From sequence record PV659873.1: DNA of 64,000 nucleotides, one strand, 5' to 3'. The translations under genes were made by a program, and so were the position numbers. This document shows, piece after piece, positions 3,046 to 3,438 of this stretch; the stretch's first letter is position 1, and each line of letters begins with the position of its first letter. This DNA is from Escherichia phage WPEC1. The notes beneath the pieces are model-generated. The model made no database searches. It saw only the letters and a program-made list of their open reading frames with translations, and was not told the origin of the DNA.

Positions 3046-3123
3046 TTGAGCCTTAGATCTGTAACCTTCGGGTAGTGCATTCAGTGTTTTACCAGATATC
3101 GGTTGTAAGCTTGCCGCTTCAAG
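3046..3123. repeat. inverted-repeat arm (target segment) of repeat locus 1
   Basis: 78 bp whose exact reverse complement recurs at 3200-3277 and, 74 bp of it, at 3359-3432. Confidence 0.9.
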
Positions 3124-3438
3124 TAGACGAGTCTACAAAGAGGCCGTTGGTTCAGTTATTGCTAACTTAGAAAGTAGTGTAGAATATGAACCATTTACTC
3201 TTGAAGCGGCAAGCTTACAACCGATATCTGGTAAAACACTGAATGCACTACCCGAAGGTTACAGATCTAAGGCTCAAGTCGTAGACGAGTCTACAAAGAG
3301 GCCGTTGGTTCAGTTATTGCTAACTTAGAAAGTAGTGTAGAATATGAACCATTTCCTATTGAAGCGGCAAGCTTACAACCGATATCTGGTAAAACACTGA
3401 ATGCACTACCCGAAGGTTACAGATCTAAGGCTAACAGA
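3123..3438. repeat. tandem direct repeat, 2 copies of a 158 bp unit, each carrying the reverse complement of 3046-3123
   Basis: unit 1 3123-3280 and unit 2 3281-3438; identical except 3197/3355 and 3200/3358 and the last 6 nt; each unit starts with the palindrome GTAGACGAGTCTAC. Confidence 0.9.

Follow-up and report, generated by a model that had tools for sequence, protein, structure and literature searches.

An unmerged 'bubble' or 'bulge' branch of a de Bruijn assembly graph emerges as a contig of 2k+1 nucleotides in which one central substitution is flanked on either side by k nucleotides of the main path, and exactly k nucleotides are common to the piece and the adjacent long contig. Branches of this kind normally are discarded or remain as separate tiny contigs. 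When phages are sequenced to very high coverage, recurrent errors have been documented to create false de Bruijn branches and to fragment the assembly, and SPAdes contigs bear k-sized overlap artifacts that are to be removed, such as artificial overlaps of 127 bp (PMC5923482). Classically, an overlap of this kind appears as a direct repeat at the two ends of a single circular contig. Invertible segments (Mu G/Gin, P1 C/Cin, shufflons) and diversity-generating retroelements are a second point of reference, as they too place an inverted piece of a virion gene beside the gene.

The repeat structure analyzed here occupies positions 3046-3438 (locus 1) of the window, which is the entire 64,000 nt stretch of Escherichia phage WPEC1 DNA under study. 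As with unmerged graph branches, the repeated pieces are 155 nt long (2x77+1), carry one central substitution and match the main path over both 77 nt flanks, and precisely 77 nt are common to piece and neighboring long contig. As with SPAdes contig-end overlaps, the repeat equals k and represents an untrimmed overlap between neighbors. The contigs also break at alternative single-base branches as in high-coverage fragmentation; coverage here may have been excessive, and the alternative bases may be either errors or real minority alleles. The pieces differ from ordinary bubble branches in having been pasted, reversed, into the deposited sequence, and from the classic SPAdes overlap in that k is 77 and the repeat is inverted because the neighboring piece was appended in the opposite orientation. 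The likeness to invertible segments and diversity-generating retroelements is superficial: neither a recombinase nor a reverse transcriptase was found, the repeat length equals k, the copies show identity in place of diversification, and relatives lack the structure. It is concluded that the structure almost certainly is not real, and that it consists of leftover k=77 assembly-graph pieces which were pasted between contigs of a phAPEC8-like E. coli phage.

The window was assigned to a phAPEC8-like Phapecoctavirus by megablast against a phage collection. The best matches, which are 100% identical, were Escherichia phages WPEC4, WPEC2, and WPEC6 (hospital wastewater, Thailand; host E. coli EC3.18). 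Repeat computation on the window showed that the reverse complement of 3046-3123 recurs exactly at 3200-3277 (78 nt), that the reverse complement of 3049-3122 recurs exactly at 3359-3432 (74 nt), and that 3123-3274 and 3281-3432 form a direct repeat with a spacing of 158 and 99% identity. A perfect inverted repeat of 78 nt cannot have arisen by chance. The inverted copies and the direct repeat of period 158 described in an earlier note on this DNA were reproduced at the same positions by recomputation, as were its four AGATCT sites (3055, 3263, 3421, and 3436), the two differences between units in its frame (3197/3355 and 3200/3358), and an open minus-strand frame across the arm that is continuous with the ORF at 2833..3021. 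The units also had been said to differ at their last 6 positions, 5 of which do differ. Other features were redrawn. Two tandem units are present as described, but with natural boundaries at 3123-3277 and 3278-3432 and a size of 155 nt instead of 158. The arm, previously given as 78 bp, has as its common element the 77-mer at 3046-3122, the match at base 3123, with which unit 1 begins, being fortuitous. The interval 3022-3504 was considered to be free of ORFs with a start codon, which is correct apart from a 46 aa TTG ORF (3417..3557, minus strand) that overlaps the end of the interval. The supposed 14 bp perfect palindrome GTAGACGAGTCTAC has the reverse complement GTAGACTCGTCTAC, and actually comprises a 6 bp stem, GTAGAC/GTCTAC, around GA.

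The suggestion that the arm once was coding proved to be correct: it is the interior of the gene for a 146 aa head-completion protein that is annotated as 'minor head protein'. The gene is intact in WPEC4 (intact configuration at 139590-140030), where the order is major head, Neck1, head-completion gene (146 aa), neck terminator protein, and sheath. The window possesses only the 3' 96 codons (2833..3122, minus strand) which are cut off at the end of the long contig e1. Codons 51-146 are retained, the 50 codons that precede them are lost together with the start codon, and the translation corresponds to residues 51-146 of the intact WPEC4 protein except for a variant first residue. The Pfam domain Phage_HCP (PF05521) was detected in the head-completion protein with E=4e-8. 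The 77 nt that were interpreted previously as a 'locus-specific leader' are instead the stretch of coding sequence that directly precedes the arm when the gene is intact (RRVYKEAVGSVIANLESSVEYEPF…).

The structure is absent from siblings and relatives. In WPEC2, WPEC4, and WPEC6, which are 100% identical to the window in the flanking blocks, locus 1 corresponds to a single copy of ~162 bp that is annotated as a gene. Across ~70 relatives each 'unit' is one single-copy segment of about 160 bp, which at locus 1 lies inside the 'minor head protein' gene. None of the 71 matching phage records covers at least 80% of the locus 1 query, the units matching at one ~162 bp place each. Megablast against the phage collection yielded no record with contiguous coverage of locus 1 or of the second locus described below, and all matches end at the repeat loci. 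The inverted junction at 3122|3123 is spanned by no phage record when queried with 70 nt centered on it (coverage at most 56%), nor is the tandem junction at 3277|3278, for which the only matches were in two pieces to the ends of a single 162 bp segment. Exact scans of IMG/VR gave 0 matches for the junction and likewise 0 for the intact-sequence control. The earlier note had named an assembly artifact as the possibility to be excluded, and absence from sibling and relative assemblies, which it had set against its own reading, is what was found.

Comparison with the intact sibling sequence revealed the composition of the repeated pieces. Unit 1 (3123-3277, plus strand, 155 nt) equals WPEC4 L005 3008-3162 with one central mismatch at window position 3200 (C vs. 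A) and exact runs of 77/77. Unit 2 (3278-3432, plus strand, 155 nt) equals WPEC4 L005 3005-3159, again with one central mismatch, at 3355 (C vs. A), and runs of 77/77, and so is shifted by 3 nt relative to unit 1. The arm (3046-3122) is the terminal 77-mer of contig e1 and is the reverse complement of WPEC4 L005 3086-3162, a segment that corresponds exactly to the 77 nt on the right-hand side of unit 1. The orientation of unit 1 is opposite to that of e1. Both units map to about 84269-84108 of the close reference Mt1B1_P17 in the minus orientation.

A window-wide repeat search disclosed a second locus of the same layout at 16744-17283, with an arm (16744-16823), a 149 nt insert, and two copies spaced by 158. 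The arm proper (16747..16823) is the terminal 77-mer of the long contig e3 and the 3' end of a gene to which the Pfam domain SprT-like (PF10263) was assigned in a domain scan, and its reverse complement is exactly WPEC6 L008 2085-2161. Unit 1' (16973..17127, plus strand, 155 nt) equals WPEC6 L008 2007-2161 with a central mismatch at 17050 (T vs. C) and runs of 77/77. Unit 2' (17128..17282, plus strand, 155 nt) equals WPEC6 L008 2004-2158 with a central mismatch at 17205 (G vs. A) and runs of 77/78, in which the 78th base is one chance base, and it is shifted by 3 nt relative to unit 1'. Both map to about 39185-39025 of Mt1B1_P17 in the minus orientation. The insert (piece X; 16824..16972, minus orientation, 149 nt) is a short edge of the graph that originates at an unrelated site between genes (reference 93697-93549). 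The source site possesses two T/G variable positions 6 nt apart, and 149 equals 155-6. In relatives locus 2 lies across the junction between the SprT-like and tellurite resistance genes, and the WPEC6 sequence has this SprT-like/TelA junction intact (116924-117084).

All four units at the two loci consist of exact runs that flank one central substitution (77/77, 77/77, 77/77, and 77/78). Each long contig runs on for exactly one base after the variant position (window 3122 is L005 3086; 16823 is L008 2085), and its last 77-mer therefore matches the flank of the first unit perfectly. The overlap between contig end and first unit is k, 77 nt, at both loci (3046-3122 and 16747-16823), and with the second units is 77-3, or 74 nt. 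As the variant branch ends with the same 77-mer as the contig, but flipped, a perfect inverted repeat results. The variant bases are 3 nt apart at both loci, which produces the 3 nt offset, hence the 74 nt overlap and the apparent period of 158 (155+3). A k of 79 (158 = 2x79) was the first guess, but was ruled out by the 155 nt size of the pieces, which gives a k of 77. The biological reading that was proposed for locus 1, of a repeat locus with a leader, a real 158 bp tandem repeat, and a transcript hairpin of >70 bp, thus gives way to 155 nt graph pieces and an arm that is a k-mer overlap. Locus 2 is explained by the same artifact as locus 1.

The long perfect inverted repeats beside a structural gene, and the fact that the units at locus 1 are in frame with the head-completion gene fragment, are the features that speak for a functional element, which might be an invertible switch, a locus for antisense or long hairpin RNA, or a diversity-generating retroelement. 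Such an element is practically inconceivable. Reverse transcriptase or recombinase domains were found in 0 of 6 proteins scanned at the two loci, which include the neighboring ORFs, and the annotation of the collinear reference genome Mt1B1_P17 contains no reverse transcriptase, invertase, or integrase. Adenine-specific differences between the repeat copies are lacking, as identity is 100% among the arm and its two copies; the unit-to-unit differences are single central substitutions and not adenine-template diversification. Invertase crossover sites with alternative gene ends were not observed: what is inverted is a 77 nt stretch of ordinary coding sequence with no alternative gene ends. Furthermore, the 'leader' is adjacent coding sequence and every related genome lacks the element. 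A head or tail gene switch akin to the G segment of Mu, in which a unit, the arm, and the downstream ORF form one open frame, was ruled out by the intact 146 aa sibling gene and the 77/1/77 geometry. A diversity-generating retroelement, a retron, and an antisense RNA similarly were eliminated by the lack of a reverse transcriptase, the identity of the copies, and the absence from relatives.

The arrangement of the window as a whole was assessed in a block map made against Mt1B1_P17. Positions 1-3126 correspond to reference 81063-84187 in the plus orientation, contig e1 itself ending at 3122. Contig e3 (3433..16823) carries a replication and nucleotide metabolism module and is butt-joined directly 3' of unit 2; 3493-16823 corresponds to reference 25785-39104 in the plus orientation. 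The contig ends 1 nt past the locus 2 variant site. It is 100% identical to WPEC4 L007 from position 3001 on, upstream of which WPEC4 continues normally, with the usual genes upstream in the helicase region. Contig e4 (17283..43110) runs from reference 150259 down to 123648 in the minus orientation and is misjoined at both ends. At its start, window 17283-18620 is 75-90% identical to Mt1B1_P17, compared to 96-99% in the flanks, and is a naturally variable early-gene region of this phage group. Contig e5 (43111..52372) extends from reference 116794 down to about 107526, also in the minus orientation. It is joined bluntly to e4 at 43110|43111, which leaves out 6.85 kb (reference 116795-123647). 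By chance this join creates an in-frame fusion ORF of 141 aa (window 42784-43209, minus strand) comprising the first ~33 codons of reference gp243 and nearly all of gp228. Between e5 and e6 is a piece of about 156 nt of distant-site origin (piece Y; 52373..52528), of which 52405-52528 corresponds to reference 16012-16135 in the plus orientation. Only these 124 nt match the reference, at 89.5%, and a terminator-like hairpin, GCCCCTTGCGGGGC, lies within the first 32 nt. Finally, 52525-64000 (contig e6) corresponds to reference 80610 down to 69135 in the minus orientation. A 32 nt direct repeat of 88% at 35266-35297 and 44799-44830, which ends in AAAGGGGCCGAAGCCCCT, probably is a recurring intrinsic-terminator hairpin of the phage family that is unrelated to the artifact.

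As blocks are out of order and orientation on the Mt1B1_P17 map, the window is an assembly of large blocks that are wrongly ordered and oriented. Block order and orientation are scrambled relative to all relatives. Long contigs meet at four joins, three of which contain short pieces of 149-156 nt, and the fourth (43110|43111) is blunt. The contig joins cut genes, including the head-completion protein gene.

The sibling records corroborate this pattern. The deposited sequences of WPEC2 (PV691511), WPEC4 (PV682947, 40120-46573), and WPEC6 (PV763039) contain multi-kb jumbles in which blocks of about 77 nt and about 152 nt derive from six sites and are annotated as numerous tiny hypothetical proteins. 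In WPEC4, 40.1-45.6 kb is a 5.4 kb jumble that is annotated with many 'hypothetical proteins' of 90-300 bp. When this jumble was tiled against the reference, the blocks were bimodal in size (75-87 nt and 149-164 nt), with only two overlapping 97 nt tiles in between. The blocks are in both orientations and derive from six sites only (reference about 39105, 116794, 123647, 150260, 93621, and 6797), which include the ends of the long contigs in the window, among them both ends of e4, as well as the source of piece X. The 149 nt block of piece X is present four times, and the 77-mer at window 43111-43187 with which e5 begins reappears as stand-alone blocks of 76-79 nt. These sizes are those expected for short graph edges (k+1 to k+d, 2k+1-d, and 2k+1). 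The locus 2 query matched 16-27 places in WPEC2 and WPEC6, compared to 3-4 in normal relatives. The sibling records are 155-159 kb in length, whereas relatives measure about 142-156 kb. The literature was searched without finding a paper on WPEC2, WPEC4, or WPEC6. The three records look like uncurated contig concatenations.

Phage genomes do rearrange, and the occurrence of the structure at two loci in the window might be taken to reflect genuine events in vivo, namely fold-back inversion and tandem duplication at recombination breakpoints. This origin is extremely unlikely. The rearrangement would truncate the head-completion gene and others, the structure is missing from three siblings whose flanks are 100% identical and from all other relatives, and the three siblings are each scrambled differently. 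Moreover, the piece sizes are 2k+1 of a standard assembler k, a length that no biological process sets.

Library preparation is a further potential source of inverted copies. Chimeras generated by inverted template switching during MDA, or by ligation, could have been present in the reads and followed by the assembler. Such chimeras typically have inverted junctions close to where the template originated, and the inverted copies in the window are within about 80 nt of the break. Nevertheless, a read-supported path would merge edges via the 77 nt overlap, whereas here full 155 nt edges abut bluntly with their flanks intact. Pieces from several unrelated sites (X and Y) also are included, and four pieces with 77/77 flanks that are centered on a point substitution are unlike the products of random template switching. 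Chimeric reads consequently are a very unlikely cause. As whole 155 nt edges are juxtaposed with both flanks kept, the arrangement instead points to plain untrimmed concatenation and not to a graph walk.

The structure almost certainly is an artifact of the way in which this record was built. The geometry of the pieces, their absence from siblings, and the scrambled order were observed directly, and the identity of the assembler, the concatenation step, and the origin of the variant bases are inferred. Short reads of a phAPEC8-like phage would have been assembled on a de Bruijn graph with k=77, which is the SPAdes default for the largest k when reads are about 150 nt long. At a few sites the reads would have contained two or three alternative bases a few nucleotides apart. 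The graph would have kept the alternative branches unmerged, and the long contigs would have stopped at these sites. Each one-base variant branch would be an edge of 2k+1, or 155 nt, made up of 77 shared, 1 variant, and 77 shared nucleotides. The long contigs and some of the 155 nt (and 149 nt) pieces then would have been joined end to end, with the 77 nt overlaps left in place and with order and orientation unchecked. At locus 1 this process would place the final 77-mer of e1, the arm, ahead of two branches that derive from the same site, each with a single variant base, and that run in the opposite orientation. Locus 2 would have been built in the same way at another site. Read support presumably would be lacking at the junctions. 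One observation that runs against this account is that the variant pieces adjoin their own contig end, yet are flipped. The order of the pieces is neither length-sorted, nor that of the reference, nor a valid graph walk.

The graph breaks at about eight sites only, each of which has 2-3 variable positions within 2-7 nt. In the window the variable clusters are at 3197-3200, 3355-3358, 17046-17050, and 17204-17207, and on the intact sibling sequences the variable positions are WPEC4 L005 3082/3085 and WPEC6 L008 2081/2084. Usually there is one type of substitution per site: A>C twice at locus 1, G/A at reference 116796/116797/116799, C/T at 6795/6799, T/G at 93620/93626, and C/T(G) at 150260/150262, with A>G and C>T at locus 2. 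The locus 2 alleles reappear in WPEC4 as single and double variants. As variant alleles recur in a sibling assembly, they are not random errors. The variable sites have no evident motif in common that might be, for instance, a target of restriction or defense. The locus 1 changes can be read as T>G just 3' of an inverted repeat and a GC-rich context, which resembles known Illumina sequence-specific errors. The transitions at other sites fit this picture less neatly. A mixture of two divergent phages is an unlikely source of the branches, since bubbles then would be expected at every SNP and not at about eight sites. It is doubtful that the variable sites are real hot spots of recurrent heterogeneity (heteroplasmy) in the phage population as opposed to sequence-specific sequencing errors. 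If this were true, the hot spots could represent, for example, host-defense escape mutations or localized hypermutation.

The structure has no biological significance, and its value lies in what it discloses about data quality. The source record and the 'complete genomes' of WPEC2, WPEC4, and WPEC6 look like sets of contigs that were left unfinished and joined without curation. They include jumbles of several kb, genes that are cut short, and tiny spurious ORFs by the dozen. Users of such records for studies of synteny, repeat discovery, gene content, or therapeutic safety would be misled. Comparison with a sibling genome for the 77+1+77 (k/1/k) pattern offers a quick, general test for artifacts of this type that requires only sequence.
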